Of a DNA stretch of 64,000 nt, positions 10,278-51,666 are shown piece by piece; within the stretch, counting starts at the first letter, position 1; each line of letters begins with the position of its first letter. The notes under the pieces are model-generated. The model saw only the letters and a program-made list of their open reading frames with translations, was not told the origin of the DNA and did no database searches. The DNA lies in assembly GCA_964432915.1 (NCBI GenBank), contig CAYSPL010000014.1, positions 1,676 through 65,675 on the forward strand, in the 5' to 3' direction. Both the position numbers and the translations under genes were made by a program. Source of the stretch: an uncultured Maribacter sp. Its GTDB lineage: Bacteria > Bacteroidota > Bacteroidia > Flavobacteriales > Flavobacteriaceae.

Positions 10278-10340
10278 AAAGCTCCTCCCCTTGGTTAAGG
10301 GGAGGTGGCTCCGCCTTTTGGCGGAGACGGAGGGGATGGT
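10278..10340 (+). repeat. 63-bp double-hairpin REP-like repeat, copy 1
   Basis: Identical to 11215-11277; hairpins CCTCCCCTT-GGTT-AAGGGGAGG and CTCCGCC-TTTT-GGCGGAG. Confidence 0.95.
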
Positions 10341-10399
10341 TTCATTGGGGAATAGCTTTTATTTGTTTAAGCACTTAAAAATCAGAATCTGTATTATAA

Positions 10400-11209
10400 A
10401 TGTTAAAAACGCTCTTCAAAATAAGTTTTCATTTATTAGTAACCGTGTTTTTGACAGTTGTTACTCAAATAGGGGGACTATTTTATTTGTTGACTTTTGT
10501 TATTGTCAAAAAGACAAGCACAAAATATCGATTGAAACGTTTGGTTTTTTTCTTACTCTTTTATCTCATTGCCACAATCATTTTTGTTCCAATAATCGCC
10601 CCAATATTTGGAAGAGAAAAAATAAAGAAATCCGATTTCATTGAAGCGAGAACATTTATGACTGATTTGACGAATCGAAATTATGTTCGGCCAGAATTGA
10701 ATGCATCACTTCAAAAAATAGCTAAGAGACTTGATACAACACACAGGGGCATTAAAGTGGTTTATTTGGATGCTAATTTTCCATTTATAAATAAATTTCC
10801 ATTGCTCCCTCATTTAAGTCACAATGATGGAAAGAAAATAGATATTTCATTAATATATCAAGATGAATCAGGGAAACTTACAAATAGGAAACCATCAGTT
10901 AGTGGGTATGGTTTTTTTGAAAAACCTAAATCTGGCGAATACGATCAAATCAAAAGATGTTTTGAAAAAGGTTATTGGCAATATGATTTTCCAAAGTATT
11001 TAACTTTCGGCACAATTAATTCGCATCTAAGTTTTTCTGAAAAAGCTACAAAAGATTTGATTAGAGAAATTTTGAAGCAACCCATTACAGGTAAATTGTT
11101 CATTGAACCTCATTTGAAAAATAGACTGAAATTGAACAATCCTAAAATCAGATTTCATGGCTGTCAGGCAGTTCGACATGATGACCACATTCATTTTCAG
11201 CTCAAGTAA
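10400..11209 (+). CDS. Membrane-anchored hypothetical protein, probable LAS-type (MepA/M74-like) zinc peptidase
   Basis: 269 aa; N-terminal TM segments, H-x6-D (SHNDGKKID) and C-terminal H-x-H (HDDHIH) motifs. Confidence 0.65.
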   Translation: MLKTLFKISFHLLVTVFLTVVTQIGGLFYLLTFVIVKKTSTKYRLKRLVFFLLFYLIATIIFVPIIAPIFGREKIKKSDFIEARTFMTDLTNRNYVRPELNASLQKIAKRLDTTHRGIKVVYLDANFPFINKFPLLPHLSHNDGKKIDISLIYQDESGKLTNRKPSVSGYGFFEKPKSGEYDQIKRCFEKGYWQYDFPKYLTFGTINSHLSFSEKATKDLIREILKQPITGKLFIEPHLKNRLKLNNPKIRFHGCQAVRHDDHIHFQLK

Positions 11210-11214
11210 ATTCC

Positions 11215-11277
11215 AAAGCTCCTCCCCTTGGTTAAGGGGAGGTGGCTCCGCCTTTTGGCGGAGACGGAGGGGATGGT
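11215..11277 (+). repeat. 63-bp double-hairpin REP-like repeat, copy 2
   Basis: Exact direct repeat of 10278-10340. Confidence 0.95.
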
Positions 11278-11278
11278 A

Positions 11279-12574
11279 CTATTCATCCGTGTTTTTTTGA
11301 CCGAACAAGTTGGCTAAAACAAAAACAACTACCGCCGGCACTACCCAACCCATGTGATATTTTTGAAGTGGGATCCAAGAAAAACCATCCCCTATTGCAG
11401 CTAGTGGGCTTATACTCCCCAAAAAATCAGGTAAACTAAAAAGTATGGTTGCAAGAACTACCGCTTTAAAAACTTTGGGCGCAGCATATTTCTCAGGTAG
11501 TACATTGAGCAAAATCAATACAATGGTAATAGGATAAATAATCATCAGTACTGGAATCGCAATGACGATTATGGAATGAAAATCTAATTGCCCAATCAAA
11601 ATTCCAATGGCACAGGCCAAAATTCCGGTGATCACATAAGCCTTTTGAGAACCTTTAAATAGCCCTTTAAAATAATCGGCCGTACCGGTAACAATACCCA
11701 CGGCCGTGGTAAAACAGGCCAAAGCGATGAGTATACTCAGTACTTTGTTGCCGAAAGCGCCCAACGAGGCCAAGCTGATTCCACGTAGCAAATTTGCCCG
11801 TTGCATATCATTGCTCAGCGTATAATCAACTTCTATATTCGCACCAAAAAATGAACCTACTGAGATCAATCCAGCATAAATAAGGAGTAATCCGAGCCCT
11901 GCGATGAATCCTGATTTTCGAATGATTTCCTTTTTGGCATCGAATGAAGTATGTCCTTTTAAATTGAGTGAAATAATAACAACAGCTCCCACAACCACCG
12001 CACCAATGGCATCAAAAGTTTGATAGCCTTCTAAAAGACCACTGACCATCGGAGTTTCAAAAGTAGTCGCGTTCATTGTTCCATCCGAAGAAAACAACCC
12101 TATGCCAATGACCGCTAGAAGCATCATTACAATAATGGGTGTCAAGAACTTGCCTATGAAGCTCAGTATTTTAGACCTATTCAAAACAAATACCAAAACA
12201 AGGGAAAAATAGATGCTGCTGGTCAATAAGGGACTTGTGCCAAAAGCAGGATGAATTGCAATTTCGTGTGTTGCAGATGCCGTTCTAGGAGAGGGTATGG
12301 TCATCGAAATAAGGTAAACGGTAATGCAATAGATGGTACTGAAAATGGGAGATACCTTTTTTCCGAAATCATACATGGTTCCTTGTAATCTGGCATGCGC
12401 CAGTATGCCCAAAATAGGAATCACCACTGCAGTGATCATGAACCCAAGAGTTACCCACAGCCAATCTTCACCCGCATTGTATCCTAAAAGGGGAGGCAAG
12501 AGTAAATTGCCTGCTCCAAAGAAAAGCGAGAATAAAGCGAAGGCGGTTATAAGCGTTTCTTGATTTTTTTTCAT
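11279..12574 (-). CDS. brnQ: Branched-chain amino acid transport system II carrier protein
   Basis: FALFSLFFGAGNLLLPP, EGYQTFDAIG, ACFTTAVG motifs; about 12 TM; start set at ATG 12574. Confidence 0.93.
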   Translation of the reverse strand: MKKNQETLITAFALFSLFFGAGNLLLPPLLGYNAGEDWLWVTLGFMITAVVIPILGILAHARLQGTMYDFGKKVSPIFSTIYCITVYLISMTIPSPRTASATHEIAIHPAFGTSPLLTSSIYFSLVLVFVLNRSKILSFIGKFLTPIIVMMLLAVIGIGLFSSDGTMNATTFETPMVSGLLEGYQTFDAIGAVVVGAVVIISLNLKGHTSFDAKKEIIRKSGFIAGLGLLLIYAGLISVGSFFGANIEVDYTLSNDMQRANLLRGISLASLGAFGNKVLSILIALACFTTAVGIVTGTADYFKGLFKGSQKAYVITGILACAIGILIGQLDFHSIIVIAIPVLMIIYPITIVLILLNVLPEKYAAPKVFKAVVLATILFSLPDFLGSISPLAAIGDGFSWIPLQKYHMGWVVPAVVVFVLANLFGQKNTDE

Positions 12575-12843
12575 CAAAAGATTTTGAAAAGGTTTTGAAA
12601 GATAGCCCAAAAAAAGCGTTCAAAAAAAGTTGTGGATCGTACTAGAATCATGTCATTCATCGAATAAAATGCAGTTCATCGAAAATATGCAATAATCGGA
12701 AACCCCTACCCAATAAAAAACAAAAGCTTGGCGTTGGGGTATAAGAATTTGCGAAAAGCGATTCAAATCAATTACCCAAATTTTACGTATGGAACTCAGT
12801 GCTCCATCACTGGCGGTCATATTCAAAACCTACAAAGTCTAAC

Positions 12844-13062
12844 ATGAAAAAAATATTATGTAACATCTTCGGACACCATTACTCCGTTTCAAAAAAAGTT
12901 ACCCAACATATCAAGGAATATAAATGCGTTCATTGTGACAAACAAGTTACTACTGATGTCAGTGGCAACCTATCGATTTTGACACCTGAGTTGCAAGACA
13001 TCAACAAAACCTTGGAAAAAATTTATCGAAAAAGGCATAGAGCCGCCTTTCAGGCCGCTTGA
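12844..13062 (+). CDS. DUF1660-like small zinc-ribbon protein
   Basis: 72 aa from ATG 12844; LCNIFGHHY ... YKCVHC pattern. Confidence 0.7.
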   Translation: MKKILCNIFGHHYSVSKKVTQHIKEYKCVHCDKQVTTDVSGNLSILTPELQDINKTLEKIYRKRHRAAFQAA

Positions 13063-13240
13063 TATGTAATACACTAAGCATAAACCATGCTATGGCATCG
13101 AGTTCTGATTTAAAATTGGAATTCAAGACTTATTCCCGAGAATTAAGTTAGCACCAAAACTCTTACCTGTCGTTCGCCCCACAACAGTTTAGATTGGATT
13201 GCGCTTGATTTTTGGGAATTTTTTAGTATCGATTCTTTTC

Positions 13241-13268
13241 ACCTCTTTGAAGGAAGAGGTCTTTTTTT
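13241..13268 (+). terminator. Intrinsic terminator between the convergent DUF1660 gene and thiL
   Basis: ACCTCTT-TGAAGG-AAGAGGT followed by CTTTTTTT. Confidence 0.7.
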
Positions 13269-13289
13269 GGTTTGTTTTGAACACCTAAT

Positions 13290-14342
13290 TTATTCGTTTG
13301 ATTTAAAAGAATTCCACCCTTGGGCAGTCAGAGGAACTTTCGTGTTCGCTCGGGTAATCATATGGCTTCCTTCTTTTGCTTCGGTCATGTGACCAATGAC
13401 AGTCAAGTTCGGATTGCCTTTGATTTTATCAAAATCTTTTTGACTGATCGTAAAAAGCAATTCAAAATCCTCTCCGCCACCCAACGCTACCATGGTACTA
13501 TCAATATTGAACTCTTCACAGGCTGAAATCACGGTTGGATCAAGAGGAATCTTGTCTTCGTACATATTACAACCCACCTCACTTTGTTTGCAAAGGTGTA
13601 AAATCTCAGATGAAAGTCCGTCGCTGATATCGATCATCGAGGTAGGTTTTACCTCCAAAACTTCCAAAAGTTCAACAATATCTTTCCGGGCTTCTGGTTT
13701 GAGTTGTCTTTCGACAATATAAGAATAGGCTCCTAAATCAGGTTGATTGTTTGGGTTGACTTTAAAAACCTCTTTTTCGCGCTCTAAAACCTGTAAGCCC
13801 AAATAGGCCCCTCCCAAGTCTCCGCTTACCACCAAAAGATCACCAGGTTGTGCCCCAGTTCTAAAAGTGATTTTTTCCTCATTGGCCAGGCCGATCGCCG
13901 TGACACTTAACAGAAGTCCTTTATTTGATGAAGTGGTGTCGCCACCCACTAAATCGACCCCATATTTTTTCGTGGCCAAGGCAATACCCTCATATAATTC
14001 TTCTAGGGCCTCCAAAGGAAATCGATTTGAAACCGCCAGCGAAAATGTAATTTGGGTGGCCATGGCGTTCATGGCGTACACATCAGAAAGATTTACCATG
14101 ACGGCTTTGTATCCTAAATGTTTTAAAGGAACATAGGCCAAATCAAAATGTACCCCCTCTACCAAAAGGTCTGTTGAAACCACCGTTTTCTTGCCTTTAT
14201 GGTCAAGAACGGCACAGTCATCACCAATACCTTTTAATGTAGATTTTTGGGTAATGGAGAAATCTTTTGCCAATCGGTCTATCAGTCCGAATTCGCCCAA
14301 TTTGTCCAGCGAGGTACGGGTTTGGTTTTTATCCTCTAACAT
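13290..14342 (-). CDS. thiL: Thiamine-monophosphate kinase
   Basis: 350 aa; GEFGLI, GIGDDCAV, NLSDVYAM, GGDTT, MIDISDGL, GGEDFELL. Confidence 0.96.
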   Translation of the reverse strand: MLEDKNQTRTSLDKLGEFGLIDRLAKDFSITQKSTLKGIGDDCAVLDHKGKKTVVSTDLLVEGVHFDLAYVPLKHLGYKAVMVNLSDVYAMNAMATQITFSLAVSNRFPLEALEELYEGIALATKKYGVDLVGGDTTSSNKGLLLSVTAIGLANEEKITFRTGAQPGDLLVVSGDLGGAYLGLQVLEREKEVFKVNPNNQPDLGAYSYIVERQLKPEARKDIVELLEVLEVKPTSMIDISDGLSSEILHLCKQSEVGCNMYEDKIPLDPTVISACEEFNIDSTMVALGGGEDFELLFTISQKDFDKIKGNPNLTVIGHMTEAKEGSHMITRANTKVPLTAQGWNSFKSNE

Positions 14343-14489
14343 GCTACAAAAGTAGTAGTATTAACTGTGCATGCAATGAACATCTTTTCTTTTGTAGGGT
14401 TTTAAGGCTTTGAACTGTTGTAAAGTTGACGGTCAAAATACGACATCGATTTTATATGCTTTATCTTTGCGACACCATACACTACAATC

Positions 14490-16421
14490 ATGAAAAAATC
14501 AATTTTCCTTAGCTCTTTCCTATCCTGCTTATTTCTATTGTTTTCATGTGGAAAAGATGACGATTCCGATGATAATGATGCTGAAGAGGTTGAGGTTGTA
14601 GTGCAATTTGTGCAAAGTAGTGGTTTTGATTTGGAGGGAGACAATGAAGATATTCCCAAATTGAGACTATTAGGTTCGGTTGAGTCGCCTACTACGGTTA
14701 CTGTTGATTTGGTAAACTCAGGAACCACGGCTAGTGGTGAAGACTTTAATTTCGACGCTCCGGCAATTGTTATGATTCCTCCTGGAAACTATGATGGTTC
14801 CAATGCCAGTGCATTGCCCATCACAGATCTCTCCATTGTTGATGACACAGAAGAAGAGGAAACGGAAACTATCGAGTTAAGACTCTCAGACCCAACCGGA
14901 GACGCAGTTTTAGGAGACCGAACAAACACTACCTATAGCATACTTGATAATGATGGATTGACCATTTCCTTTTCAAGAGCTGTTAATTCGGCAAATGAAA
15001 GCTCAGAGGAAGACCTTCCTAAAATCTTGGTTATTGGTACAGTGCAACAAGAGACTACTATTACCGTAACCGATTTAGGTAATGGCTCTGCAATCAATGG
15101 AGAAGATTACCTATTGGAATCTCCTGTTGATATTGTGATTCCGGCAGGGGTCTATAATGGTGGAGAAGCTTCTTTGGTACAGATTCCAAGTCTCTCAATA
15201 ATTGATGATGATATTGTTGAGCTAACAGAATTTTTTGAATTGGAACTTTCTACGGCCACCAACGAGAATTTAGGAATCACATCGACTCGATATGAGATTA
15301 AAGGTTTTTCGCCTTGTGAAAATGGCGTAGCAGATTCATACCCGTGTTCAGGTTATGATTTATTGGGGAGTATTTCTTTGTCTGATTTTTTAGCAGGTTC
15401 AGGAAATGATATATGGGGGTGGACAGACGAATTTTCAGGCAAGGAATATGCAATTGTTGGGCTTAATAATGGTACCGCCTTTGTTGAAATATCAGGAGAT
15501 GACCCAATTTATTTAGGCAAACTTCCTACTGCAACTGGCCCAAGTTCTTGGCGAGATATTAAGGTGTATAAAGATCATGCCTTTATAGTTTCAGAGGCGA
15601 ATAGTCATGGTATGCAAGTTTTTGATTTGACCAAATTACGCAATGTGTCGAACCCACCTGCCACTTTTCAAGCCGATACCAGATATCAAGGCTTTGGCAA
15701 TGCACATAACATTGTGATCAATGAAGACACTGGTTTTGCTTACGTGGTGGGCACGGATCGCGGCGATATATACGGTGGGGGCGCCCATTTCATAAACATC
15801 CAAGATCCAAAGAACCCTATCGCTGCTGGAGGATATGGTGCTGACGGCTATTCTCATGACGCTCAAGTGGTTACCTACAATGGCCCTGATGCTGATTACT
15901 TGGGTAAAGAAATTTACATTGGTTCAAACGAAAATGAAGTCATTATTGCAGATGTGACCGATAAAGATAATCCTGTGAATATTTCCAAGGTTTCCTATTC
16001 GAATATATCCTATACGCATCAAGGTTGGTTCACCGAAGATCAGCAGTATTTTATTTTGGGTGATGAATTGGATGAAGTGGATTTTGGTTTTCAATCAAGA
16101 ACATTGGTTTTTGATTTTACCGATTTGGATAACCCTCTTTTCTTTGACACCTATTTAGGCACAACCAGTGCAATTGATCATAATGGTTATGTAAAAGGCG
16201 ATGAATATTATTTGGCAAATTACACGGCAGGGCTGAGGGTGCTTGATATAGCGGGTATTGCAAATAAATCTATCAATGAAATAAGTTATTTCGATACTTT
16301 TCCAACTTCTGACAATGCACAATTTTCCGGTGTTTGGAGTGTATATCCGTACTTCTCAAATGGCAAAGTCGCTATCAGTGATATCAATTCAGGACTCTTC
16401 ATTGTTAAAAAATCGAATTGA
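14490..16421 (+). CDS. Lipoprotein with two Calx-beta-like repeats and a choice-of-anchor B (LVIVD-type propeller) domain
   Basis: Lipobox LFSC; two TA.NGEDY...IDDD...E.F.L.LS repeats; DIWGW, WRDIK, AHNIV, HQGW, LGDELDE, WSVYP motifs; TATCTTTG box at 14462-14469. Confidence 0.8.
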   Translation: MKKSIFLSSFLSCLFLLFSCGKDDDSDDNDAEEVEVVVQFVQSSGFDLEGDNEDIPKLRLLGSVESPTTVTVDLVNSGTTASGEDFNFDAPAIVMIPPGNYDGSNASALPITDLSIVDDTEEEETETIELRLSDPTGDAVLGDRTNTTYSILDNDGLTISFSRAVNSANESSEEDLPKILVIGTVQQETTITVTDLGNGSAINGEDYLLESPVDIVIPAGVYNGGEASLVQIPSLSIIDDDIVELTEFFELELSTATNENLGITSTRYEIKGFSPCENGVADSYPCSGYDLLGSISLSDFLAGSGNDIWGWTDEFSGKEYAIVGLNNGTAFVEISGDDPIYLGKLPTATGPSSWRDIKVYKDHAFIVSEANSHGMQVFDLTKLRNVSNPPATFQADTRYQGFGNAHNIVINEDTGFAYVVGTDRGDIYGGGAHFINIQDPKNPIAAGGYGADGYSHDAQVVTYNGPDADYLGKEIYIGSNENEVIIADVTDKDNPVNISKVSYSNISYTHQGWFTEDQQYFILGDELDEVDFGFQSRTLVFDFTDLDNPLFFDTYLGTTSAIDHNGYVKGDEYYLANYTAGLRVLDIAGIANKSINEISYFDTFPTSDNAQFSGVWSVYPYFSNGKVAISDINSGLFIVKKSN

Positions 16422-17767
16422 TGAAAAGATGGTTTTTCACATACCTCACGATTTTATTTTTTGCTTGTTCTGACGAATCAAGCATAGTTGAGATTGATAA
16501 CGATACAAGTACCACTTTTTTTGGCGAGTTGGATTATGTCAAAAATTTTGGAGGCACAGGTGAAGACACGGCAAGGGCCATTATTTCTACCAATGACGGG
16601 GGTTATGCTATTTTGGGTTTTTCGAATAGCACAGACGGTGATCTAAGCGAAAAGTCCACACAGGTCAATGACTATTGGTTGCTTAAATTGGATGCCGACG
16701 GAAATGTACAATGGAGCAAGACATACGGTGGAAGTAAAGATGATCGAGGGCAAAGTTTGATTCAAACCTTGGACGGAGGTTATGCATTGACCGGTTATGC
16801 GATGAGTGATGACGGTGATGGTAGTGTGAACAAGGGTTTTCATGACAACTGGATCCTGAAATTGGATGCCCAAGGCGAAATAGAATGGGAAAAGAGCTTT
16901 GGATTCTCAGGGCATGATCATTCCTACGATCTTTTACAAACTGAAGAGGGAGGTTTTTTCTTCGTCGGATTTTTAGACATCACATCGGCTCGAGCCGACG
17001 GAAATACTGAAAAAGCAACCTCATTGACACGTCATGGGGTGGGCGAGTTTTGGGGTACTAAAATAGACCCTTCAGCCAATTTACAATGGCGTGGATATTA
17101 CGGGGGCACAAGCAATGACCGAGCACATTCTGTGGTTCGGGCTGATGATGGGGGTTATGTCATGGCTGGTTTTACCGAAAGCAATGATTTTGATATTGAC
17201 AACTCGCGGGGCAGTTATGATTTTTGGGTGGTAAAGATCGATGATTCAGGTAATTTGAAATGGCAAAAATCATTGGGTGGATCGGGTATTGAAAGGGCCC
17301 AAGATATTTCGAATACGGCAGATGGCGGCTATGTCATAACAGGCAATACCTTCAGTATTGATTTGGATATTTCGAAGAACAATGGAGAGTCAGATATCTG
17401 GCTTGTTAAGATTGACGATCAAGGCAAGTTGATCTGGGATGTCTCTTTTGGTGGCTCGCAATTTGATGCTGCGCAAAGTGTGACCCTGAGTAAAGATGGA
17501 GGTTTCATCATAACAGGAAATACAAAAAGCAGTGATAAAGACGCCAATGCCAATGCAGGCGAAAATGATATTTGGCTCATTAAAACCGATGCCAACGGAA
17601 ATATGGTTTGGCAAAAAACTTTTGGCGGTGCCGGATTGGACTATGCTTTTGATGCCATGGAAACTACAACAGGTGCTATTATATTGGTTGGTGAAACCTC
17701 AAGCGGCGACTTTATGGGTGTGACCAATAAAGGAAAATCCGATCTAGTGGTAATCAAGATAAAATAA
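16418..17767 (+). CDS. Lipoprotein with GGS.D/T.DGGY beta-propeller repeats (hypothetical)
   Basis: 449 aa; lipobox FFAC; repeated W.K.yGGs..D.A..i..T.DGGy.i.G units. Confidence 0.75.
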   Translation: MMKRWFFTYLTILFFACSDESSIVEIDNDTSTTFFGELDYVKNFGGTGEDTARAIISTNDGGYAILGFSNSTDGDLSEKSTQVNDYWLLKLDADGNVQWSKTYGGSKDDRGQSLIQTLDGGYALTGYAMSDDGDGSVNKGFHDNWILKLDAQGEIEWEKSFGFSGHDHSYDLLQTEEGGFFFVGFLDITSARADGNTEKATSLTRHGVGEFWGTKIDPSANLQWRGYYGGTSNDRAHSVVRADDGGYVMAGFTESNDFDIDNSRGSYDFWVVKIDDSGNLKWQKSLGGSGIERAQDISNTADGGYVITGNTFSIDLDISKNNGESDIWLVKIDDQGKLIWDVSFGGSQFDAAQSVTLSKDGGFIITGNTKSSDKDANANAGENDIWLIKTDANGNMVWQKTFGGAGLDYAFDAMETTTGAIILVGETSSGDFMGVTNKGKSDLVVIKIK

Positions 17768-17880
17768 CGGATTCCGTTTTAAGGCTACTGTAATTTCGAT
17801 ACGAACTTGCCATAGAAATCCCCTATATAAAGATTTGTTATTTTAATGTTGCCAATTGGGCTGAAAAGTAAGGAATGGCG

Positions 17881-17914: not shown

Positions 17915-17917
17915 AGA

Positions 17918-18247: not shown

Positions 18248-18255
18248 AATTAAAT

Positions 18256-18280
18256 TCCCCCTTTGGGGGATTAAAGGGGG
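18256..18280 (+). repeat. Short GC hairpin repeat TCCCCC-TTT-GGGGGA-TTAAAGGGGG
   Basis: GC-rich hairpin plus G tail in the iscA-sufB gap; same hairpin-then-GGGG layout as the large repeat family. Confidence 0.55.
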
Positions 18281-18283
18281 TCA

Positions 18284-27205: not shown

Positions 27206-27237
27206 AAAAAGCCCCTGCTAAGAGCAGGGGCTTTTTT
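27206..27237. terminator. Bidirectional intrinsic terminator
   Basis: AAAAAGCCCCTGCT-AAG-AGCAGGGGCTTTTTT. Confidence 0.9.
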
Positions 27238-43208: not shown

Positions 43209-43231
43209 CATATTGTATTTATACGAAAAGG

Positions 43232-43606: not shown

Positions 43607-43608
43607 GT

Positions 43609-44451
43609 TTACAGAGGCCGTGCCACCATAATACCTGTATTCTTTTTGATTTTCTTGATGTAATCCACCAAAGGTAATTCGGTAACCTCCACTTCGTTTG
43701 AAATTGTTGAGGCATGCAGTAAATGAATACGACCATCTTTTTCTCGGGTGGCGATGCCGGTATGGGTAATATCCAATCCTTTGATTGACGTAGTTAGGGC
43801 GATGATGTCTCCTGTTTCAATCAGGTGTTCATTTTTTGCAATCTGATCTTGGGGTAAAATGCAGATGACTTCATTGTTCAGATAATGTTCAGAAGATTTT
43901 ATCTTTTCAAAATTTTCATCATCGCTCAAAAAGGGATACAAATCGCGATGCGTGCTCATGAAATTGATTTCCTTTTTCACTTCGCTTCCGCCAATGGTGG
44001 AGGTCATGTCTTTGAGTATTCCTTTTGACTCATTGTTGGCAATCCATTCGGAAAAATAATGGAGACGAGAAGCGTATCCATCTAGCTTCCCGTCTTTATA
44101 CCGAATGGTTTTTAATATATGGGTAAAGCTATCCAAATCATCCTTACCATCCCTTAAAAGGGTGCTGAACGCCAGAACATTTTCTACGAAGGTCGTACAA
44201 TCGAGACCTTGTAGATTGATGACCAAAGATTCGGTGGCACCTATTTCCAAAGTTTTTGCTACATAGGGTACGCCCTTGAAAGTCTTGCCAATGGCAACCA
44301 GTGTTTTACCAAAGTCATTTTCAAGCAAGCCGTCAATAGCTATTGTTTTGTCTTCAAATGCCTGCTTATCTTTAGGGGAACAGGTAATACTTTGAGCTAA
44401 AGTCAAATTAATAGTGCCAATTAAAAGTATAATGAAAGCAATTGATTTCAT
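43609..44451 (-). CDS. DUF1460 / AmiA-like NlpC/P60-fold amidase
   Basis: GVPYVAKTLE, LDCTTFVE, RLHYFSEW, ITHTGI, LLHAS; signal peptide from ATG 44451. Confidence 0.85.
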   Translation of the reverse strand: MKSIAFIILLIGTINLTLAQSITCSPKDKQAFEDKTIAIDGLLENDFGKTLVAIGKTFKGVPYVAKTLEIGATESLVINLQGLDCTTFVENVLAFSTLLRDGKDDLDSFTHILKTIRYKDGKLDGYASRLHYFSEWIANNESKGILKDMTSTIGGSEVKKEINFMSTHRDLYPFLSDDENFEKIKSSEHYLNNEVICILPQDQIAKNEHLIETGDIIALTTSIKGLDITHTGIATREKDGRIHLLHASTISNEVEVTELPLVDYIKKIKKNTGIMVARPL

Positions 44452-44593
44452 AGGCGCCTTTATTATCTCGAAATTAAGCAATTATTGTACCATGCAATCA
44501 AAACTATTTATATCACCATAAAAAAGTATTGAATATGAATCAAGGTCAGCTGAGAAGCATGGTTTATTTTTGCACTTGAAAAATCGCAAATTT

Positions 44594-45625
44594 ATGAAGG
44601 GAGTTTTATTGGTGAATTTGGGGTCCCCCGATAGCCCAACTGCTAAAGACGTAAAGCCATATTTAGATGAGTTTTTGATGGATGAACGTGTTATTGACGT
44701 GAATACGGTGTTGCGAAATATTTTGGTCCGCGGCATCATTCTTCAAACCCGCCCTAGAAAATCAGCTGCTGCCTACGCAAAGATTTGGTGGGATGAAGGC
44801 TCGCCACTCGTTGTGATATCGGAACGTTTTGCTGCTAAAGTGCGACAAAAAACCGACATGCCCGTGGCATTGGGCATGCGTTATGGCAGTATGTCAATTG
44901 AAAAGGCCCTCCAAGAATTAAAGGGCAAAGGGGTTGATGAGGTGCTTTTGGTGCCTTTATATCCGCATTATGCCATGTCATCTTATGAAACTGTGGTGGT
45001 CAAGACCATGCAAGTGAAGGAAGCGTCATTTCCTGAAATGAAGATTACCACGATGCCAGCATTTTATAAGAGTCAGGAGTATATTAAAGTCTTGTCGGAT
45101 AGCATTGCAGAAGGACTCAAAGATTTTGACTACGACCATATTCTATTTTCATACCACGGTATACCCGAGCGCCATGTGCGGAAAAGTGACCCTACAAAAT
45201 TTCATTGTAAGATTAACGGAAGTTGTTGCAGTATCAATTCTGTGGCCCATAATACTTGCTACCGACATCAGGTGTATGAAACCACCGAGTTGGTCAAAAA
45301 TGAAATAGGACTCTCCGAAGATAAAATCAGCACTTCATTTCAATCACGTTTGGCGGGCGACCCATGGTTAAAACCCTATACCGATTATGAGTTTGAGCGT
45401 TTGGCGAAGGAGGGAAAAAAGAAATTGGCGGTAGTTACCGCAGCCTTTGTTTCAGATTGTTTGGAAACCCTTGAAGAAATCGCCATGGAGGGCAAAGAGC
45501 AATTTGAGGAAGCCGGCGGTGAATATTATAAACATATTCCCTGTTTGAATGATAGTGATGCTTGGGTAGGGCTTATGGCGAAATGGGTTAATGAGTGGCA
45601 AACCGATGGTACTTTACCAGTATAG
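44594..45625 (+). CDS. hemH: Ferrochelatase
   Basis: LLVNLGSP, PLYPHYAMSS, LFSYHGIP, FQSRL, FVSDCLETLEEI. Confidence 0.96.
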   Translation: MKGVLLVNLGSPDSPTAKDVKPYLDEFLMDERVIDVNTVLRNILVRGIILQTRPRKSAAAYAKIWWDEGSPLVVISERFAAKVRQKTDMPVALGMRYGSMSIEKALQELKGKGVDEVLLVPLYPHYAMSSYETVVVKTMQVKEASFPEMKITTMPAFYKSQEYIKVLSDSIAEGLKDFDYDHILFSYHGIPERHVRKSDPTKFHCKINGSCCSINSVAHNTCYRHQVYETTELVKNEIGLSEDKISTSFQSRLAGDPWLKPYTDYEFERLAKEGKKKLAVVTAAFVSDCLETLEEIAMEGKEQFEEAGGEYYKHIPCLNDSDAWVGLMAKWVNEWQTDGTLPV

Positions 45626-45631
45626 ATATTA

Positions 45632-46288
45632 ATGCTGAGAGCTGTATTGTTTGATATGGATGGCGTCATCATTGACTCTGAACCCCTACATCACAAAGCA
45701 TACTATGGTATGTTCAAAGAAGTGGGAATTGCCGTTTCAGATAAACTTTATGAAAGTTTTACTGGGCAGGCAACATTGCACGTATGTTCACAATTAGTTG
45801 ATGAGTTTAAATTGAAAGAAGCACCTCAAAAACTGGTTCAAATCAAACGCCGTATTTTCAAAGAGCTGTTTTTCAACGACCCAGATTTAAAATTGATTGA
45901 TAGCGTAGAAGATTTAATAAAAGACTACCATCAAAACGGACTCACATTAATACTAGCCAGTTCAGCATCAATGCCAACTATCAATAGTGTATTTAAGCGT
46001 TTTGAACTAGACCAATATTTTAAGGCCAAACTAAGTGGGGCCGATTTAAAAGCTTCAAAACCACACCCAGAAATATTTTTAAAAGGAGCGGAAGCCTCAG
46101 GGTTTAAACGTGAACAATGTATGGTCATTGAAGACTCCACCAATGGTATAAAAGCTGCACATGCGGCTGGTATTTATTGTGTTGCCTATAAAAGCACTCA
46201 TTCTAAGAATCAAGATTATAGCTTGGCGCATAAAGTTATTGAGACTTTTGAGGAGATTGATTATGAGGCTGTAATGAAGTTATTTTAA
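45632..46288 (+). CDS. HAD family phosphatase (Gph/beta-PGM-like)
   Basis: 218 aa; FDMDGV, SKPHPEIF, IEDSTNG. Confidence 0.92.
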   Translation: MLRAVLFDMDGVIIDSEPLHHKAYYGMFKEVGIAVSDKLYESFTGQATLHVCSQLVDEFKLKEAPQKLVQIKRRIFKELFFNDPDLKLIDSVEDLIKDYHQNGLTLILASSASMPTINSVFKRFELDQYFKAKLSGADLKASKPHPEIFLKGAEASGFKREQCMVIEDSTNGIKAAHAAGIYCVAYKSTHSKNQDYSLAHKVIETFEEIDYEAVMKLF

Positions 46289-46297
46289 GGCAATACT

Positions 46298-46352
46298 TTT
46301 TTCCTTTCTCGAAATCTACGGATTTTCCACAGCCGTAGCATCCAGGCCGCTT
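46298..46352 (+). repeat. 55-bp imperfect direct repeat, copy 1
   Basis: TTTTTCCTTTCTCGAAATCTACGGATTTTCCACAG...CCAGGCCGCTT; first 35 nt match 46637-46671 with one mismatch. Confidence 0.9.
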
Positions 46353-46376
46353 ACTTGACGGAAAGCTTCTTGCAGG

Positions 46377-46534
46377 TTATTCCTTCTCCGCCGAATAAGG
46401 AGAAAAAGCTCCGAGATTCAGCTTTTTGAAAAAAAGCGCGGAGTTTTGCGACTGGTTTTACGAAGTAAAAATTCCTCTGGAGAAGGCGTGCTTTTCTTTG
46501 GTTCGTATCATTTGCACGAGCAAAAGAAATGAAC
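46377..46534. other. Multi-hairpin structured element (MITE-like or ncRNA)
   Basis: Pairs 46382-89/46479-86, 46403-10/46420-27, 46456-61/46465-70, 46501-15/46520-34. Confidence 0.55.
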
Positions 46535-46636
46535 ATAGAACTACTTTTTCCAACGCCCCATCTCGCACTTCACTTTAAAAGAAATCCAATACTTTTTTCT
46601 ATTGATGAAAAAAGTATCCAAAAAAAACTAGGCTGA

Positions 46637-46691
46637 TTTTTCCTTTCTCGAAATCTACGGATTTCCCACAGATACAGTGCCCAGGCCGCTT
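46637..46691 (+). repeat. 55-bp imperfect direct repeat, copy 2
   Basis: See 46298-46352. Confidence 0.9.
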
Positions 46692-46801
46692 CCATTTCAC
46701 GGAATGCTCTTTGGACACCTTCCATCTCCTACAGTAAAAATTCCAGGATTTCCAACAAAACGAAAAATAGGCCGATTACTTTCTAAAAAATATAATTTTA
46801 A

Positions 46802-46859
46802 AAAGCTCCTCCCCTCAGATGAGGGGGGGTGGATGCGCTTTTCGCGCAGACGGAGGGGT
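46802..46859 (+). repeat. Diverged copy of the double-hairpin REP-like repeat
   Basis: AAAGCTCCTCCCCTC-AGAT-GAGGGGGGGTGG-ATGCGC-TTTTC-GCGCA-GACGGAGGGGT. Confidence 0.88.
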
Positions 46860-46905
46860 TTGACTTCTTATTCCCCATCTCGCGCTTCAATAAAGGCTCC
46901 TAATT

Positions 46906-47586
46906 CTAAATTTCGGTAGTATTCGAAAATATCTGTCCTTTTGTAAGCCAAGAAACTCCAAAAGCGGCAAGTGCAATAGATTCTAATATAAAAACGATAT
47001 TAAATTTCTCTAAAGCGGGAAATTTATTTTTTAAAACAAGAAAATACAAAGACAATAAAACAAGGCACGCCAACATCACATAACCACTAACACGATAACA
47101 TGAATTTCGAATTTTTTTATCTTTTGTAAAATTATCAGGGGTATATGCTGATTTCGTGAACTGAAAGATGGACATAAAAGCCAGCGCAAGAAAGAAAATA
47201 GCAGCACTTATAAAGTGCACATAGTTTATCAATTTATTTTCTAGAATTCTTGGTATTAGACAACTATTGATAGTGGTGTCTTCAATAGACGTTGGAAAAA
47301 AAGCAACAAGCAGCGCTGCGCAGGCCGCAATACGGGTTAAATAAAAATCGCCCTTATCATAGCCCGTATAACAAAACATAAAAAATGAAATCGCACAAAT
47401 AATGCCTACAAACCCATCTCTCATAATGGTATGATAGTAGGCGCTTATTGAGGGCTGAACTGATTCGCAACTACCCACCAAAATAGACCCGATGATTAAA
47501 AAGAAGGGCATACCAATGGCGATAAAACCTATTGATTTGCGTAGCGTCAAAAAAGAAATAAGCTGAGCATTACGAGTGGCATTCAT
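46906..47586 (-). CDS. DUF998-like membrane protein (hypothetical)
   Basis: 226 aa; LTLRKSIG, SISAYYHT, HFISAAIFF, FGVSWLTKG; about 6 TM. Confidence 0.65.
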   Translation of the reverse strand: MNATRNAQLISFLTLRKSIGFIAIGMPFFLIIGSILVGSCESVQPSISAYYHTIMRDGFVGIICAISFFMFCYTGYDKGDFYLTRIAACAALLVAFFPTSIEDTTINSCLIPRILENKLINYVHFISAAIFFLALAFMSIFQFTKSAYTPDNFTKDKKIRNSCYRVSGYVMLACLVLLSLYFLVLKNKFPALEKFNIVFILESIALAAFGVSWLTKGQIFSNTTEI

Positions 47587-47758
47587 ATGTTGTTATTTAT
47601 GTGAAGGGGGAAGTGACTTAAAAGTAGGGAAATTCAAACAGATAATTAAATCATAATTAACCGGGGGAGCCAAATTTTCAATAAGTAAGTGCCTACTTTT
47701 TTTATAAACCCCATTTCACTACATTTAGTCTGACTAATTAAACCACTCAAAAAATCTT

Positions 47759-47782
47759 TTCTCGACTCCGCTCGAAATGACA
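47759..47782. repeat. TCGA-type REP-like palindrome
   Basis: TTCTCGACTCCGCTCGAAATGACA enclosed by AAAAAATCT/AGATTTTTT arms. Confidence 0.6.
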
Positions 47783-47805
47783 GATTTTTTTAAAAAGAAC
47801 TCAAA

Positions 47806-50800
47806 ATGAAATTACGCTACAACCTTCTAGGGCTAGTTCTAGCTGCCCTTTTTCTATTGCCTTTGACTTCTGAGGCGCAAAGACGCAAAAAAGTACAACC
47901 CGTAATAACAGCTTTCGCTGAAGACCTCTACTCGAGCATGCAATACCGGTCTATTGGTCCACATCGTGGTGGACGTTCTGCGGCCGTAACTGGGGTTCCA
48001 GGTGAACCCAATCTCTTTTATTTTGGAGCTACTGGTGGTGGCGTTTGGAAGACCCTCGATGGTGGCCGCAGTTGGGAGAATATTTCCGATGGCTATTTTG
48101 GCGGTAGTATTGGTGCCGTTGAAGTGTCGAAAAGCGACCCCAATGTCATTTATGTGGGTGGGGGCGAAAAAACCCTAAGAGGTAATGTTTCCTCGGGTTA
48201 CGGTATTTGGAAAACGGAAGATGGGGGCAAAACATGGACTTCCGCAGGGCTCAAAAAGAGTCGACATGTACCTAGAATTAGAATCCACCCGACCAATTCA
48301 GATATTGTTTATGCCGCAGTACTCGGAAATATCTACAAACCAACCCAAGACCGTGGTATTTATAAAAGTACCGATGGCGGAAAAACATGGAGCAAAAAAT
48401 TGTTTGTCAATAACCAATCGGGTTTTGTTGATTTGACATTGGATCCTAATAACCCTAGAATATTATATGCTTCTTCATGGCGTGCAAAGCGTACGCCCTA
48501 TAGTTTGAGTAGTGGTGGAGATGGTTCTGCCTTGTGGAAAAGTACCGATAGTGGCGAGACTTGGACAGCGATTTCCAAAAATGAGGGCTTCCCGCAAGAC
48601 ACTTTAGGTATTATCGGGGTAACCGTTTCCCCAAAAAACTCAGAGCGTGTTTGGGCCATTGTGGAGAACAAGGAAAAAGGGGGACTCTATCGTTCTGAAG
48701 ATGGGGGTAAAAAATGGACACAAGTTAATAGTGAGCGGAAACTGCGTCAACGTGCTTGGTACTATACCCGTGTTTATGCAGATACCGAAGATGAAGATGT
48801 GGTGTATGTTCTGAACGTACGCTATCACAAATCTACCGATGGTGGTAAGAGCTTCAATACTTTCAACGCACCACATGGCGACCATCATGATTTGTGGATT
48901 TCGCCTGAAAATTCAAAACGCATGATCATTGGTGATGACGGTGGGGCACAGGTCAGTTATGATGGAGGCGAAACTTGGAGCACCTATTACAACCAGCCCA
49001 CCGCTCAGTATTATCGCGTAACAACTGATAATGCAACGCCTTACCGCATTTATGTGGCCCAGCAAGATAACTCCACTTTACGGGTAAACCACCGTTCAGA
49101 TGGAGGCGGAATCAGCGAAGACGATTGGGAGCCGACAGCAGGAGGTGAATCAGCACATATTGCCATTGATCCCACTGATAATGATATTGTGTACGGTGGT
49201 AGTTATGGTGGATTTTTAACCCGTGTTAATCACAAAACAGGAACCGTAAGAGGTATCAATGTATGGCCCGATAACCCTATGGGATATGGTGCAGAGGGAA
49301 TGAAATATCGTTTTCAATGGAATTTTCCGATTATGTTTTCTAAGCACGACCCCAAGAAATTGTACACCTTTTCACAGCATGTACATAGGAGCACCAACGA
49401 AGGGCAAAGTTGGGAAATTTTGTCTGATGATTTGACCCGCAATGACCCTTCTAAATTGGTTTCAAGTGGGGGGCCAATCACCCAAGATAATACCGGAGTA
49501 GAATACTACTGTACCATTTTCGCGGCAAATGAGAGTCCGTTGAAAGAAGGCTTGCTATGGGTGGGCAGTGATGATGGTTTGGTTCACGTTTCTCAAGATG
49601 GAGGGGCAAATTGGTCAAATGTCACGCCAAAAGGAATGCCCGAATGGATGATGATCAACAGTATTGAACCTTCGGCCTTTGACGAGGGAGCATGCTATGT
49701 GGCAGGCACGCGATATAAGCTTGGTGATTTCAAACCATACCTCTACAAAACCACGGATTACGGAAAAACATGGAAAAAAATAACGAACGGTATAAATTCA
49801 GAGCATTTTACGCGAGTGATTCGTGAGGATCCAAAAAGAAAAGGTTTACTCTATGCAGGCACCGAAACAGGAATGTATATTTCTTTTGACAATGGAGCAA
49901 ATTGGAATCCGTTTCAGTTGAATCTGCCGATTGTTCCGATTACCGATTTGGCCATTAAAGAGAACAACCTTATCGTAGCCACCCAAGGAAGAAGTTTATG
50001 GATTTTAGATGACCTTACCGTACTACATCAATTGGATGCGACGAAGAAAAGTATGGGGGCTATTTTGTATGCGCCAAAAGACGCGTTGCGAACCAAAGGT
50101 GGAGCGGCAAGTAAACCATCAAAAACACAGGGTATGAATCATCCGAACGGGGTAATTACGCATTTCTATCTAAAAAATTTCAATAAGAAAAAGGACACGG
50201 TGCAATTGACGTATACTACAATGGCAGGAGATACTTTGGCCAATTTTAGCACTAAAGCAAAGGATAAAAAATTTGTGCTGAGGGAAGTCGAAGCAGGAGG
50301 TAATACCCAAGTCTGGGATACCCGTGGCGAAAAAGCAGAAACTTTAAACGGAATGATTTTCTGGTGGGCCAATTTTTCGGGTCCAAAGGCAGTGCCAGGC
50401 ACTTACAAAGTTCATTTAAATGTCAATGGCTCAAATCAAACGCAAGAATTTAATATTATTCCGGATCCCCGCGCTGAGGCATCTGTTGCTGATATGCAAA
50501 AGCAACATGATTTCATTTCCGCAGTGAATGCCACGATCAATCGGGCACATGGTTCGATCAAGAAAATTCGTGGGGTCAATGCCCAGTTGGATGCCTTTAC
50601 CAAACAATATGCCTGGACTCCGCCCAGCACAGGCGTCGACAAAGAAGCAATAAAGGAATTGGTAGAAAAAGCCAAAACCATGAAAGAAGAGTTTGGAAAA
50701 ATCGAAAAGGCACTGTATCAGACTAAAAATAGGAGTAGACAAGACCCATTGAATTTCCCTATTCGCTTGACCAATAAGTTAGGCCATTTGAACAGCCTAG

Positions 50801-50973
50801 TGGGCTTGGATGACTTTCCGCCCACTGATCAAGATCTTGCCGTTCAAAAAGAATTGACCGGAAAAATTGAAACCCAATTGAAGGCTTTTGATGCCATGCT
50901 CGATTCTGAATTGAAAGAATTCAACAAGGCGTTTAATGAACTGAATTTGAATTATTTGTTTGTTGAGGAGTAG
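47806..50973 (+). CDS. Secreted BNR/Asp-box (VPS10-like) glycosyl hydrolase-like protein
   Basis: 1055 aa; signal peptide, RSIGPHRGGRS, many T.DGG.TW repeats, helical C-terminus. Confidence 0.88.
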   Translation: MKLRYNLLGLVLAALFLLPLTSEAQRRKKVQPVITAFAEDLYSSMQYRSIGPHRGGRSAAVTGVPGEPNLFYFGATGGGVWKTLDGGRSWENISDGYFGGSIGAVEVSKSDPNVIYVGGGEKTLRGNVSSGYGIWKTEDGGKTWTSAGLKKSRHVPRIRIHPTNSDIVYAAVLGNIYKPTQDRGIYKSTDGGKTWSKKLFVNNQSGFVDLTLDPNNPRILYASSWRAKRTPYSLSSGGDGSALWKSTDSGETWTAISKNEGFPQDTLGIIGVTVSPKNSERVWAIVENKEKGGLYRSEDGGKKWTQVNSERKLRQRAWYYTRVYADTEDEDVVYVLNVRYHKSTDGGKSFNTFNAPHGDHHDLWISPENSKRMIIGDDGGAQVSYDGGETWSTYYNQPTAQYYRVTTDNATPYRIYVAQQDNSTLRVNHRSDGGGISEDDWEPTAGGESAHIAIDPTDNDIVYGGSYGGFLTRVNHKTGTVRGINVWPDNPMGYGAEGMKYRFQWNFPIMFSKHDPKKLYTFSQHVHRSTNEGQSWEILSDDLTRNDPSKLVSSGGPITQDNTGVEYYCTIFAANESPLKEGLLWVGSDDGLVHVSQDGGANWSNVTPKGMPEWMMINSIEPSAFDEGACYVAGTRYKLGDFKPYLYKTTDYGKTWKKITNGINSEHFTRVIREDPKRKGLLYAGTETGMYISFDNGANWNPFQLNLPIVPITDLAIKENNLIVATQGRSLWILDDLTVLHQLDATKKSMGAILYAPKDALRTKGGAASKPSKTQGMNHPNGVITHFYLKNFNKKKDTVQLTYTTMAGDTLANFSTKAKDKKFVLREVEAGGNTQVWDTRGEKAETLNGMIFWWANFSGPKAVPGTYKVHLNVNGSNQTQEFNIIPDPRAEASVADMQKQHDFISAVNATINRAHGSIKKIRGVNAQLDAFTKQYAWTPPSTGVDKEAIKELVEKAKTMKEEFGKIEKALYQTKNRSRQDPLNFPIRLTNKLGHLNSLVGLDDFPPTDQDLAVQKELTGKIETQLKAFDAMLDSELKEFNKAFNELNLNYLFVEE

Positions 50974-51006
50974 GTATTAGAGATTTTTGAAAGATAAAAA
51001 GAACAG

Positions 51007-51048
51007 GTCCTTCCCTGCAAAGGGGAGGTGCCCACAGGGCGGAGGGGT
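51007..51048 (+). repeat. REP-like unit A1 of the left inverted doublet
   Basis: GTCCTTCCCTGCAAAGGGGAGGTGCCCACAGGGCGGAGGGGT; 41 of 42 nt identical to 51532-51573. Confidence 0.95.
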
Positions 51049-51094
51049 CTTGGTAAGTTAATCTAAAAAGTTGAATCATTCGAGTTTCTAGCCT

Positions 51095-51139
51095 CTACCC
51101 CTCCGGCTGTCGCCACCTCCCCTTGAAAAAGGGGAGAAC
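51095..51139 (-). repeat. REP-like unit B1 of the left inverted doublet
   Basis: CTACCCCTCCGGCTGTCGCCACCTCCCCTTGAAAAAGGGGAGAAC; inverse orientation to A1, near-identical to 51621-51666. Confidence 0.93.
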
Positions 51140-51161
51140 CCATAGATTCAACTTTAGTATA

Positions 51162-51530
51162 ATGCCTGAAAAACTTAACAATCATAAATACTTAAAAGAG
51201 TTTAGAAAAGAGTTACGTAACAATCCAACAAAAGCTGAATCACAATTGTGGAAAGTGCTTCAAAAGAAGCAGTTAAATAGAAGAAGATTTAGACGACAGC
51301 ATAGCATTGGAAATTACATTCTTGATTTTTATTGTCCTGAAGAGAAATTAATAGTAGAACTTGATGGTCAGGTACATGACAATTTTGTAAATCAAGAATA
51401 CGATAGAAAAAGAGCAGAGTTTTTAGAGAGCTTAGGCTTTAAAGTTTTGCGTTTTGAAAACCATTTAGTCTTTGAACAATTAGACATGGTTCTAGAGGCC
51501 ATTAGAGCAGAATTTAAACTTGAAAAATAA
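51162..51530 (+). CDS. DUF559 family (Vsr-like) endonuclease domain protein
   Basis: 122 aa from ATG 51162; PTKAESQLW, FRRQHSIGNYILDFYC, IVELDGQVH, YDRKR, GFKVLRFEN. Confidence 0.92.
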   Translation: MPEKLNNHKYLKEFRKELRNNPTKAESQLWKVLQKKQLNRRRFRRQHSIGNYILDFYCPEEKLIVELDGQVHDNFVNQEYDRKRAEFLESLGFKVLRFENHLVFEQLDMVLEAIRAEFKLEK

Positions 51531-51531
51531 A

Positions 51532-51573
51532 GTCCTCCCCTGCAAAGGGGAGGTGCCCACAGGGCGGAGGGGT
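51532..51573 (+). repeat. REP-like unit A2 of the right inverted doublet
   Basis: GTCCTCCCCTGCAAAGGGGAGGTGCCCACAGGGCGGAGGGGT, starting 2 nt after the DUF559 stop. Confidence 0.95.
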
Positions 51574-51620
51574 TTTGTTGAAGTTGTCGAGAAGTTTTAG
51601 AAAATTTCAATATTGAATCG

Positions 51621-51666
51621 CTACCCCTCCGGCTATCGCCACCTCCCCTTTTTTCAAGGGGAGGAC
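51621..51666 (-). repeat. REP-like unit B2 of the right inverted doublet
   Basis: CTACCCCTCCGGCTATCGCCACCTCCCCTTTTTTCAAGGGGAGGAC. Confidence 0.93.

Follow-up and report, generated by a model that had tools for sequence, protein, structure and literature searches.

The stretch of DNA analysed here, referred to below as the window, comprises 64,000 nucleotides from an uncultured Maribacter sp. of the Flavobacteriaceae (GenBank assembly GCA_964432915.1, contig CAYSPL010000014.1, positions 1,676 to 65,675 of the forward strand). It carries seven copies of a dispersed repeat and a gene for a DUF559 protein, a small endonuclease, with repeat copies on both of its sides. Judged by their sequence, the copies consist, in this order, of a pyrimidine arm, a loop, a purine arm that would pair with the pyrimidine arm (hairpin 1), a second loop, which here holds a further hairpin (hairpin 2), and a tail that is the putative third strand of an intrastrand DNA triplex.

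The window was scanned with the composite pattern AGGGGAGGTG-N(3-30)-CGGAGGGG, the expectation being taken from shuffles, and with a covariance model (R1) which had been trained on 22 copies, all from other genomes and none from the window. Six matches to the composite pattern were found against 0.00 expected, and the seventh copy, at 46808, was one base off the pattern. R1 recovered exactly seven copies (E 6.6e-12 to 9.4e-8), and its next-best full-length match in the window had E = 1.7. All the copies listed in a preliminary description of this DNA were thus found in their places, and the compensatory base changes quoted there for hairpins 1 and 2 proved to be correct. The copies and the DUF559 gene are the following:

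10284..10337, plus strand: copy A1, CCTCCCCTT-ggtt-AAGGGGAGG, second loop made of TG, a 7-bp hairpin and AC, tail GGAGGGGAT; R1 46.5 bits, E 6.6e-12
11221..11274, plus strand: copy A2, same sequence as A1 over ~63 bp; matched by R1
46808..46859, plus strand: degenerate copy, hairpin 1 CCTCCCCTC/GAGGGGGGG with a T-G wobble, hairpin 2 TGCGC/GCGCA; R1 38.6 bits
51009..51048, plus strand: copy B1, CCTTCCCT-gcaa-AGGGGAGG, short hairpin 2 GCCC/GGGC, tail GGAGGGGT; left half of the doublet upstream of DUF559
51096..51137, minus strand (inverted): copy C1, right half of the upstream doublet; ends 25 nt before the DUF559 start codon
51162..51530, plus strand: gene of the DUF559 (YcjD-family, Vsr-like PD-(D/E)XK) endonuclease, 122 amino acids; PF04480, E 8.3e-36
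51534..51573, plus strand: copy B2, begins 4 nt past the DUF559 stop codon; left half of the downstream doublet
51622..51664, minus strand (inverted): copy C2, right half of the downstream doublet

When folded as DNA, every window copy formed hairpin 1, and a clean hairpin 2 was obtained in all of them except 51622-51664(-). Of the six repeat copies folded, five left the CGGAGGGG tail unpaired; it was partly paired in 51622-51664(-). Copies A1 and A2 bracket an open reading frame (ORF) of 269 amino acids (10400-11209), while B1/C1 and B2/C2 make up two tail-to-tail doublets, plus then minus, with dissimilar spacers of 47-48 bp.

The mirrored tail and the probable fold of the repeat

The tail 5'-GGAGGGGT and the hairpin-1 purine arm 5'-AGGGGAGG mirror each other. 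This relation was examined in loci which had been picked by the DUF559 protein and not by the motif (80 metagenome and 26 viral loci), by collecting the pyrimidine/purine hairpins that had 7 bp or more and lay no farther than 400 bp from a DUF559 gene. A fully mirrored 3' tail accompanied 146 of the 424 unique hairpins, both strands being scored, which sets the ceiling at ~50%; with purine arms of other classes as control, a mirrored tail was seen in 2.3% of trials. Among the mirror-asymmetric arms (n=389) the mirror stood 3' in 139 cases and 5' in 10, and a 3' direct repeat was present in 39, these last because of the partner copy in doublets. Altogether 50 distinct hairpin-1 purine arms occurred near DUF559 genes, each with its matching tail, including these pairs:

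purine arm AAGGAGGGG, tail GGGGTGGTT
purine arm AGGGGAAGG, tail GGAAGGGGT
purine arm AAAGGGAGG, tail GGAGGGTTT
purine arm AAAGGGAGA, tail AGAGGGATT
purine arm AAGAGAGG, tail GGAGAGTT

The tail follows one rule in 149 instances of these 50 classes: G-C pairs are faced by G, and A-T pairs by A or T. These are precisely the triplets of an antiparallel purine motif (G*G-C, A*A-T, T*A-T), and the three-way covariation over 50 classes provides comparative evidence for natural selection on a DNA triple helix. A T in the tail would put an A into the third strand if the complementary strand were to fold, therefore the G-rich strand is the likely folding strand, and a pyrimidine-motif triplex on the C-rich strand was rejected on the same ground. 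Mimicry of a Shine-Dalgarno or anti-Shine-Dalgarno sequence (GGAGGTG) was also considered and discarded, since other sequence classes of the same architecture do not contain GGAGGTG.

Strict triplex motifs numbered seven in the window against 0.15 expected, namely six of the copies of the preliminary description and a minimal motif at 10221-10248(-). Copy 46808 failed, its purine arm having drifted, and its tail GGAGGGGT is no longer a full mirror of that arm. The minimal motif and a still shorter one are described as follows:

10221..10248, minus strand: minimal motif of another sequence class, without hairpin 2, CTTTCCC-ttta-GGGAAGG-tta-GGATGGG; weak R1 match, overlaps the stop codon of the aminopeptidase P gene
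18256..18281, plus strand: six-triplet mini motif, TCCCCC-ttt-GGGGGA-ttaa-AGGGGG(T); intergenic, found by eye and under the 7-bp threshold

Hairpin 2 is conserved as a fold and not as a sequence. In an alignment of 22 foreign copies of equal length, in which hairpin 1 is invariant, five of the six pairs of hairpin 2 have changed on both sides, paired cells amount to 98.4% as compared with 39-59% when the 3' partner is shifted by 1-3 columns, and none of 500 shuffles matched the observed covariation. Furthermore, the hairpin-2 segment has 120 different sequences in the 145 copies listed from other genomes, with the stem nearly always formed. The idea that selection acts on the fold is therefore borne out, and the covariance model and the scan of other genomes, which had been proposed as a check, gave significant covariation. 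Many copies near DUF559 genes have just 2-5 nt between purine arm and tail, consequently hairpin 2 is best regarded as an optional stem closing a long second loop. The label 'double hairpin' is incomplete, as it missed the mirrored tail, which is the defining feature.

The BoxC/PIT/TMECO type of repeat has been familiar since the 1990s; the searchable papers report for it neither a function nor a mechanism of spreading nor a partner protein. Intrastrand triplex motifs were described as abundant in prokaryotes by Holder et al. 2015 (Nucleic Acids Research 43:10126, PMC4666352), where class II is defined by the triads C-G-G, T-A-A and T-A-T. The E. coli representative, TMECO, is CCCTCNCCC-N3-6-GGGNGAGGG-N3-GGGNGAGGG; it had earlier been called BoxC and then, by Maher's group, the PIT (potential intrastrand triplex) element, and as single-stranded DNA it forms a stable triplex, not a quadruplex, according to nuclear magnetic resonance (NMR) and circular dichroism (PMC4666352). 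TMECO is always intergenic, without strand bias, occurs sometimes as palindromic pairs and shows no association with transposons, phages or plasmids; rearrangement among E. coli strains is more frequent at its loci than at control loci, linking the repeats to genomic instability (Holder et al. 2015, PMC4666352). The same article reports no associated gene and mentions neither DUF559 nor ycjD (PMC4666352).

The window repeats share with BoxC/PIT/TMECO and with class II of the ITxF finder (Hoyne and Maher 2000, as cited in PMC4666352) a pyrimidine arm, a purine arm and a mirrored G/A/T arm that are consecutive on one strand. They also have the same triads, stems of 8-9, an intergenic position without strand bias, and both singlets and palindromic pairs, and a further likeness is the variation from strain to strain and the wide spread across bacteria. 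The differences are in the core, which is CCCTCNCCC/GGGNGAGGG/GGGNGAGGG in TMECO and CCTCCCCT/AGGGGAGG/GGAGGGGT in the window class, and in the second loop, which has 3 nt in TMECO and 11-23 nt with a covarying hairpin in the window copies; the TMECO/BoxC consensus was not matched by any window copy and was matched beside E. coli ycjD. As for the class II definition of ITxF, six of the seven copies and 10221-10248 pass the strict detector of the three-block architecture, the tails keep to the triads C-G-G, T-A-A and T-A-T, and the window stems of 8-9 nt, with one G-T wobble in 51009, fall within the limit of 6-15 nt and at most one mismatch. The finder is restricted to loops of 1-6 nt (PMC4666352), therefore copies with hairpin 2 would be missed: in the seven copies loop 1 has 4-5 nt and loop 2 has 11-23 nt, and only the minimal motifs at 10221 (TTA) and 18256 (TTAA) have both loops within this range. 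Based on this comparison the window repeats appear to be a hairpin-carrying variant of the published BoxC/PIT/TMECO-type intrastrand triplex repeat. The hairpin inside the second loop looks new, and it means that short-loop searches such as ITxF undercount intrastrand triplex elements.

Several G runs lie on the G-rich strand, and a quadruplex has been a formal competitor for TMECO as well (PMC4666352), so that a G-quadruplex, or a plain protein-binding site with incidental mirror symmetry, had to be weighed. We find this scarcely credible: a quadruplex needs neither the pyrimidine arm nor the position-by-position A/T mirroring, yet both are conserved over the 50 classes, the NMR result for TMECO spoke for a triplex (PMC4666352), and mirror repeats are not read by proteins as equivalent sites.

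Spread of the motif and its DUF559 neighbour

A scan across genomes, one genome per species, with the pattern CCCCT-N(3-9)-AGGGGAGGTG-N(3-30)-GGAGGGG yielded at least 120 loci. Hosts of this core among the matches listed are Oscillospiraceae and other Clostridia, Sphingomonas, Sphingobium, Bacteroidales and Flavobacteriaceae, and further Prosthecochloris (Chlorobi), Patescibacteria, Deinococcales, Negativicutes and other Proteobacteria. Even bases outside the pattern are nearly fixed, CCT preceding it in 135-142 and T following it in 135 of 145 copies. The tabulation that had been proposed, of singlets versus doublets, orientation, neighbours and presence/absence, was carried out: 35 tail-to-tail doublets, 8 head-to-head pairs and 105 singlets were counted in the genome loci, gene-less tail-to-tail doublets (gap ~22 bp) being the main paired form. 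Tandem head-to-tail arrays of motif and flanks were noticed too, with six copies at a period of ~100 bp in a metagenome-assembled genome of the Bacteroidales (L044 105-1606) and at least four copies at a period of ~47 bp elsewhere (L165 1-200); another array stands upstream of a gene (L158).

Relative to flanking genes, 30 copies were sense and 28 antisense, and 20 convergent intergenic regions with copies were found as against 6 divergent ones. The latter ratio and the position of copies near gene ends would suit an element acting on RNA, either the mobile terminator or RNA-stability element once proposed or a hairpin stabilising mRNA 3' ends, and in this low-GC host hairpin 1 of some copies is followed, on the opposite strand, by a T-rich run (10305-10284, 51553-51534). 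Nevertheless we consider this explanation highly improbable, and that earlier proposal was not supported. Sense and antisense copies are equally frequent, the terminator scan found no T-run after the motif on its own strand, a terminator needs no mirrored and covarying tail, and the alternation of A and T in the tail fits the rules of the DNA purine motif, while purine-motif triplexes cannot form in RNA (PMC4666352). PIT elements had neither promoter nor terminator activity in E. coli (earlier work cited by PMC4666352). Searches against Rfam 15, at both gathering and permissive thresholds, revealed nothing relevant in the window or in 16 foreign loci; the matches were tRNAs, only in foreign loci, at the gathering threshold and otherwise chance microRNA-like hits with E > 0.2.

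Comparison with relatives demonstrated presence/absence polymorphism. One orthologous convergent intergenic site carries a doublet in four related loci and is empty in three relatives, and the four occupied sites hold different sequence classes with the mirror rule kept in each. In three Maribacter relatives the interval between pepP and brnQ, where A1 and A2 lie in the window, has a different gene content and no motif, and R1 had no match in 28 kb of these relatives. The copies are absent at orthologous sites, hence they are not fixed orthologous terminators, and neither of the two outcomes named beforehand as refuting the preliminary reading, a lack of significant covariation or copies confined to fixed orthologous positions, was observed; in strains of the window population itself the arrangement is identical in all, without polymorphism. 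The identical copies A1 and A2 are recent acquisitions or conversions. M. algarum keeps the 269-amino-acid gene (74% identity) without either flanking copy, and a cassette delivered together with its flanking repeats was rejected for this ORF on that account. What the interval holds differs between these genomes: a single gene lies there in the window, but in M. algarum there are three small ORFs, in strain MJ134 an amidohydrolase, and in a metagenome-assembled genome a LytTR two-component pair with a phosphoesterase.

No function is known, to our knowledge, for DUF559 (E. coli YcjD), which as a family is very large. The window protein scored 122.6 bits with PF04480 (cut-off 20.6) and matched the YcjD equivalog model NF007294 with E 1.8e-23, below the equivalog cut-off. 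The DUF559 profile matched PDB 3hrl (E 1.6e-30). More remote matches were the nuclease domain of PvuRts1I and, with E 5e-6, the catalytic domain of the homing endonuclease I-Bth0305I (3r3p). Reviews assign DUF559 to the Vsr clade of PD-(D/E)XK nucleases (PMC3424549, PMC1189080). D55, E66, D68 and H72 are invariant in ten motif-associated DUF559 proteins from several phyla.

Among the matches listed DUF559 was present in 10 of 120 motif loci, always within ~300 bp of a motif copy, and nowhere else in the ~0.9 Mb fetched around these loci. It is the only Pfam family that recurs among 150 motif-adjacent ORFs of the loci listed, the others being unrelated housekeeping genes, and so the preliminary proposal of the DUF559 protein as candidate enzyme gains support from the gene neighbourhoods. 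In the opposite direction, a strict motif lay within 300 bp of 49 of the 71 DUF559 genes with enough flank (44 of 56 in the metagenome loci), and the density of motifs was 2.32 per kb within 300 bp of DUF559 as compared with 0.18 per kb elsewhere in the same loci (13 times). In the commonest layout the start codon follows 1-60 nt after the end of a plus copy, and a minus copy abuts or overlaps the stop codon, thus the DUF559 gene lies inside a tail-to-tail doublet; the window, with a minus copy upstream and a plus copy downstream, represents a minority, and other layouts occur. No paper that links DUF559 to triplex repeats was found in the searchable literature, within which the link looks new.

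Specificity of DUF559 clades for motif classes was examined and dismissed: the more identical the proteins are, the more often they share a class, but phylogeny confounds this trend, and the motif classes are mixed at 22 of 72 genes. In two loci (L055 and L118) the inverted motif encodes the C-terminal residues of the DUF559 protein. Three Sphingomonas species (L032, L084, L118) have DUF559 at the same position, directly upstream of a gene beginning MDFIAILSIFVLACFVGY, which is probably part 2 of the transhydrogenase alpha subunit; the recurrence of one site in three species implies that the arrangement is old and stable in the genus.

The annotation of E. coli K-12 lists ycjD as a DUF559 domain-containing protein, and a consensus TMECO stands 168 bp downstream of the gene; the chance of such proximity was estimated at ~0.5% (23 TMECO copies in 4.6 Mb). 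An imperfect duplicate (35/40) of the 3' end of ycjD, ~40 bp long, was noticed 48 bp past the stop, between ycjD and TMECO (L235 5300-5420, NC_000913 about 1351300-1351420), and a metagenome locus (L125) has a duplicated DUF559 gene end and a motif after the gene, similarly to K-12. Of 5426 complete E. coli genomes, 3378 carry ycjD. For the TMECO counts the placement of strains in phylogroups is in part presumed. Phylogroups A, B1 and C carry ycjD, and elsewhere eefRABCD occupies the locus, except in sequence types ST69 (D) and ST182 (E), which have ycjD (PMC12817139, 2026). Strains of A, B1 and C hold 13-30 TMECO copies, 19-30 in all but UMNK88 (13), while in groups mostly without ycjD 1-2 copies were counted in thirteen B2 strains and 6 in IAI39 (F) (PMC4666352 supplement). 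This trend fits a model in which DUF559 is the partner of the repeat.

A candidate mechanism and its rival

We regard as probable that the element is an intrastrand-triplex repeat with an optional hairpin in loop 2 and with DUF559/YcjD as its partner, for which we infer the specificity of the nuclease as well as the mechanism of spreading from the arrangement of genes and repeats. When the G-rich strand becomes single-stranded, the pyrimidine arm CCTCCCCT would pair with the purine arm AGGGGAGG, and the 3' tail GGAGGGGT would turn back into the major groove, where it would run antiparallel to the purine arm in the triplets G*G-C, A*A-T and T*A-T, with hairpin 2 closing the long second loop as an optional, sequence-free stem. 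DUF559 might then recognise or nick this fold, or the place where it joins duplex DNA. If the break were repaired by recombination with other copies, the motifs would be homogenised and spread, the DUF559 gene could move between doublets in a homing-like manner, local rearrangement could follow, and partial duplications of gene ends such as those in E. coli and L125 might be left. The sequences themselves establish the architecture, the covariation of the three arms, the neighbourhood with DUF559 and the presence/absence polymorphism; triplex folding of such a single strand and instability of the loci are known for TMECO (PMC4666352). The link of the repeat to DUF559 in several phyla and in E. 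coli K-12 makes the roles of both the repeats and the protein family testable in a model organism.

Several points weigh against this model. The link to DUF559 is, by its genomic basis, an association only. A nuclease of 120 amino acids cannot transpose DNA alone. No strict motif was found near 22 of the 71 DUF559 genes, the majority of motif copies have no DUF559 gene anywhere near, and the orientation of the motif around DUF559 varies. More than one motif sequence class flanks 22 of 72 DUF559 genes, thus sequence-specific recognition is unlikely. A comparison of filled and empty sites, whose flanks have diverged, gave no readable target-site duplication. The phylogroup correlation rests on few independent events, and TMECO is present in 11 copies in O157:H7 (phylogroup E) and in 12-15 copies in D, both mostly without ycjD (PMC4666352 supplement). 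Finally, Maher's group saw no in vivo phenotype for PIT elements (per PMC4666352).

Some of these points can be taken as signs of passive non-B-DNA repeats, kept or spread by host replication slippage and recombination, for which DUF559 would be an unrelated small mobile cassette that inserts or survives there, the motif serving as a landing pad. Such targeting has a parallel in some insertion sequence elements, which target REP (repetitive extragenic palindromic) sequences. The copies without DUF559 nearby, the variable orientation, the flanking motifs that often differ in class and the 11-15 TMECO copies in phylogroups D and E without ycjD are all expected for passive repeats, and so is the conserved position of DUF559 upstream of the same gene in Sphingomonas. 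We hold this explanation for rather unlikely, since it offers no reason why a nuclease family should be the only recurrent neighbour in many phyla among the loci listed, and it accounts neither for the repeated partial duplications of the gene 3' end and motif nor for the higher TMECO numbers in lineages carrying ycjD.

Returning to the partner model, a more far-reaching version is put forward tentatively, as possible and not as probable: DUF559/YcjD proteins may be structure-specific nucleases acting on the intrastrand purine-motif triplex, and gene and repeats may together constitute a new class of phylum-spanning selfish elements, occurring as a triplex-ended unit, as gene-less doublets and as solo copies, similarly to RAYT (REP-associated tyrosine transposase) and REPIN (a REP doublet) systems with another enzyme and another fold. 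If true, both natural DNA triplexes and a large family without assigned function would gain a biological role.

The REP/REPIN-RAYT systems resemble the window repeats as short structured intergenic repeats, present as singlets and inverted doublets and enriched between convergent genes, with one small enzyme gene per genome flanked by repeats. However, RAYT is an HUH Y1 transposase and DUF559 a Vsr-like PD-(D/E)XK nuclease, the gene associated with the repeats being PF04480 and not an HUH Y1 (TnpA-REP) transposase; REP sequences are plain hairpins with a GTAG head and no third strand, and mobilisation of the repeats by DUF559 is only putative. Vsr-like homing endonucleases (I-Bth0305I, PDB 3r3p) have a homologous catalytic fold, although the similarity of 3r3p to DUF559 is distant (E 5e-6), and they share a small, selfish-looking gene placed tightly inside its putative recognition context as well as partial duplications of gene ends; in contrast to them DUF559 has no intron, intein or single cognate target gene, and its targets would be dispersed structured repeats. 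The doublets recall the terminal inverted repeats with short core of a miniature inverted-repeat transposable element, and the DUF559 unit a gene-carrying version of it, but a transposase is lacking and the sequence class of the two ends may differ. With H-DNA in duplex mirror repeats the purine-motif triplet chemistry and the mirror symmetry are shared; here, unlike in H-DNA, one strand carries all three arms, its own pyrimidine arm included, therefore the fold would need single-stranded DNA or cruciform extrusion and not the strand exchange of H-DNA.

Gene context in the window

The copies had been described as lying next to accessory genes, which is true in part, their neighbours also including aminopeptidase P, BrnQ, an HAD hydrolase and BNR/sortilin proteins. 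The aminopeptidase P is 89% identical to its M. algarum counterpart. The gene between pepP and brnQ, in the A1/A2 region, encodes the 269-amino-acid predicted membrane protein (10400-11209), which has no Pfam, NCBIfam or PADLOC match and whose C-terminus ...RHDDHIHFQLK resembles a metal-binding motif. Copy 46808 is situated between an HAD hydrolase gene and a convergent DUF998-like gene. The DUF559 gene, with one doublet on each side, lies between two paralogous BNR/sortilin genes; the BNR/sortilin-Vps10 repeat paralogues flanking the unit have ~1050 amino acids each (47806-50973 and 51709-54834), and a third such protein is found near pepP (5418-8267). No DUF559 remnant was detected by tblastn beside the other window copies.

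Two further features of the window were noted. The 500-bp non-coding stretch upstream of copy 46808 holds a 55-nt direct repeat unrelated to the motifs (46298-46352 and 46637-46691, 85% identity, 339 bp apart), with shorter kin at 46291, 46587 and 46630. At 27208-27236 a strong plain hairpin is followed by a T-run (aaaagcccctgctaagagcaggggctttttt); it gave weak R1 matches only and looks like an ordinary bidirectional terminator.

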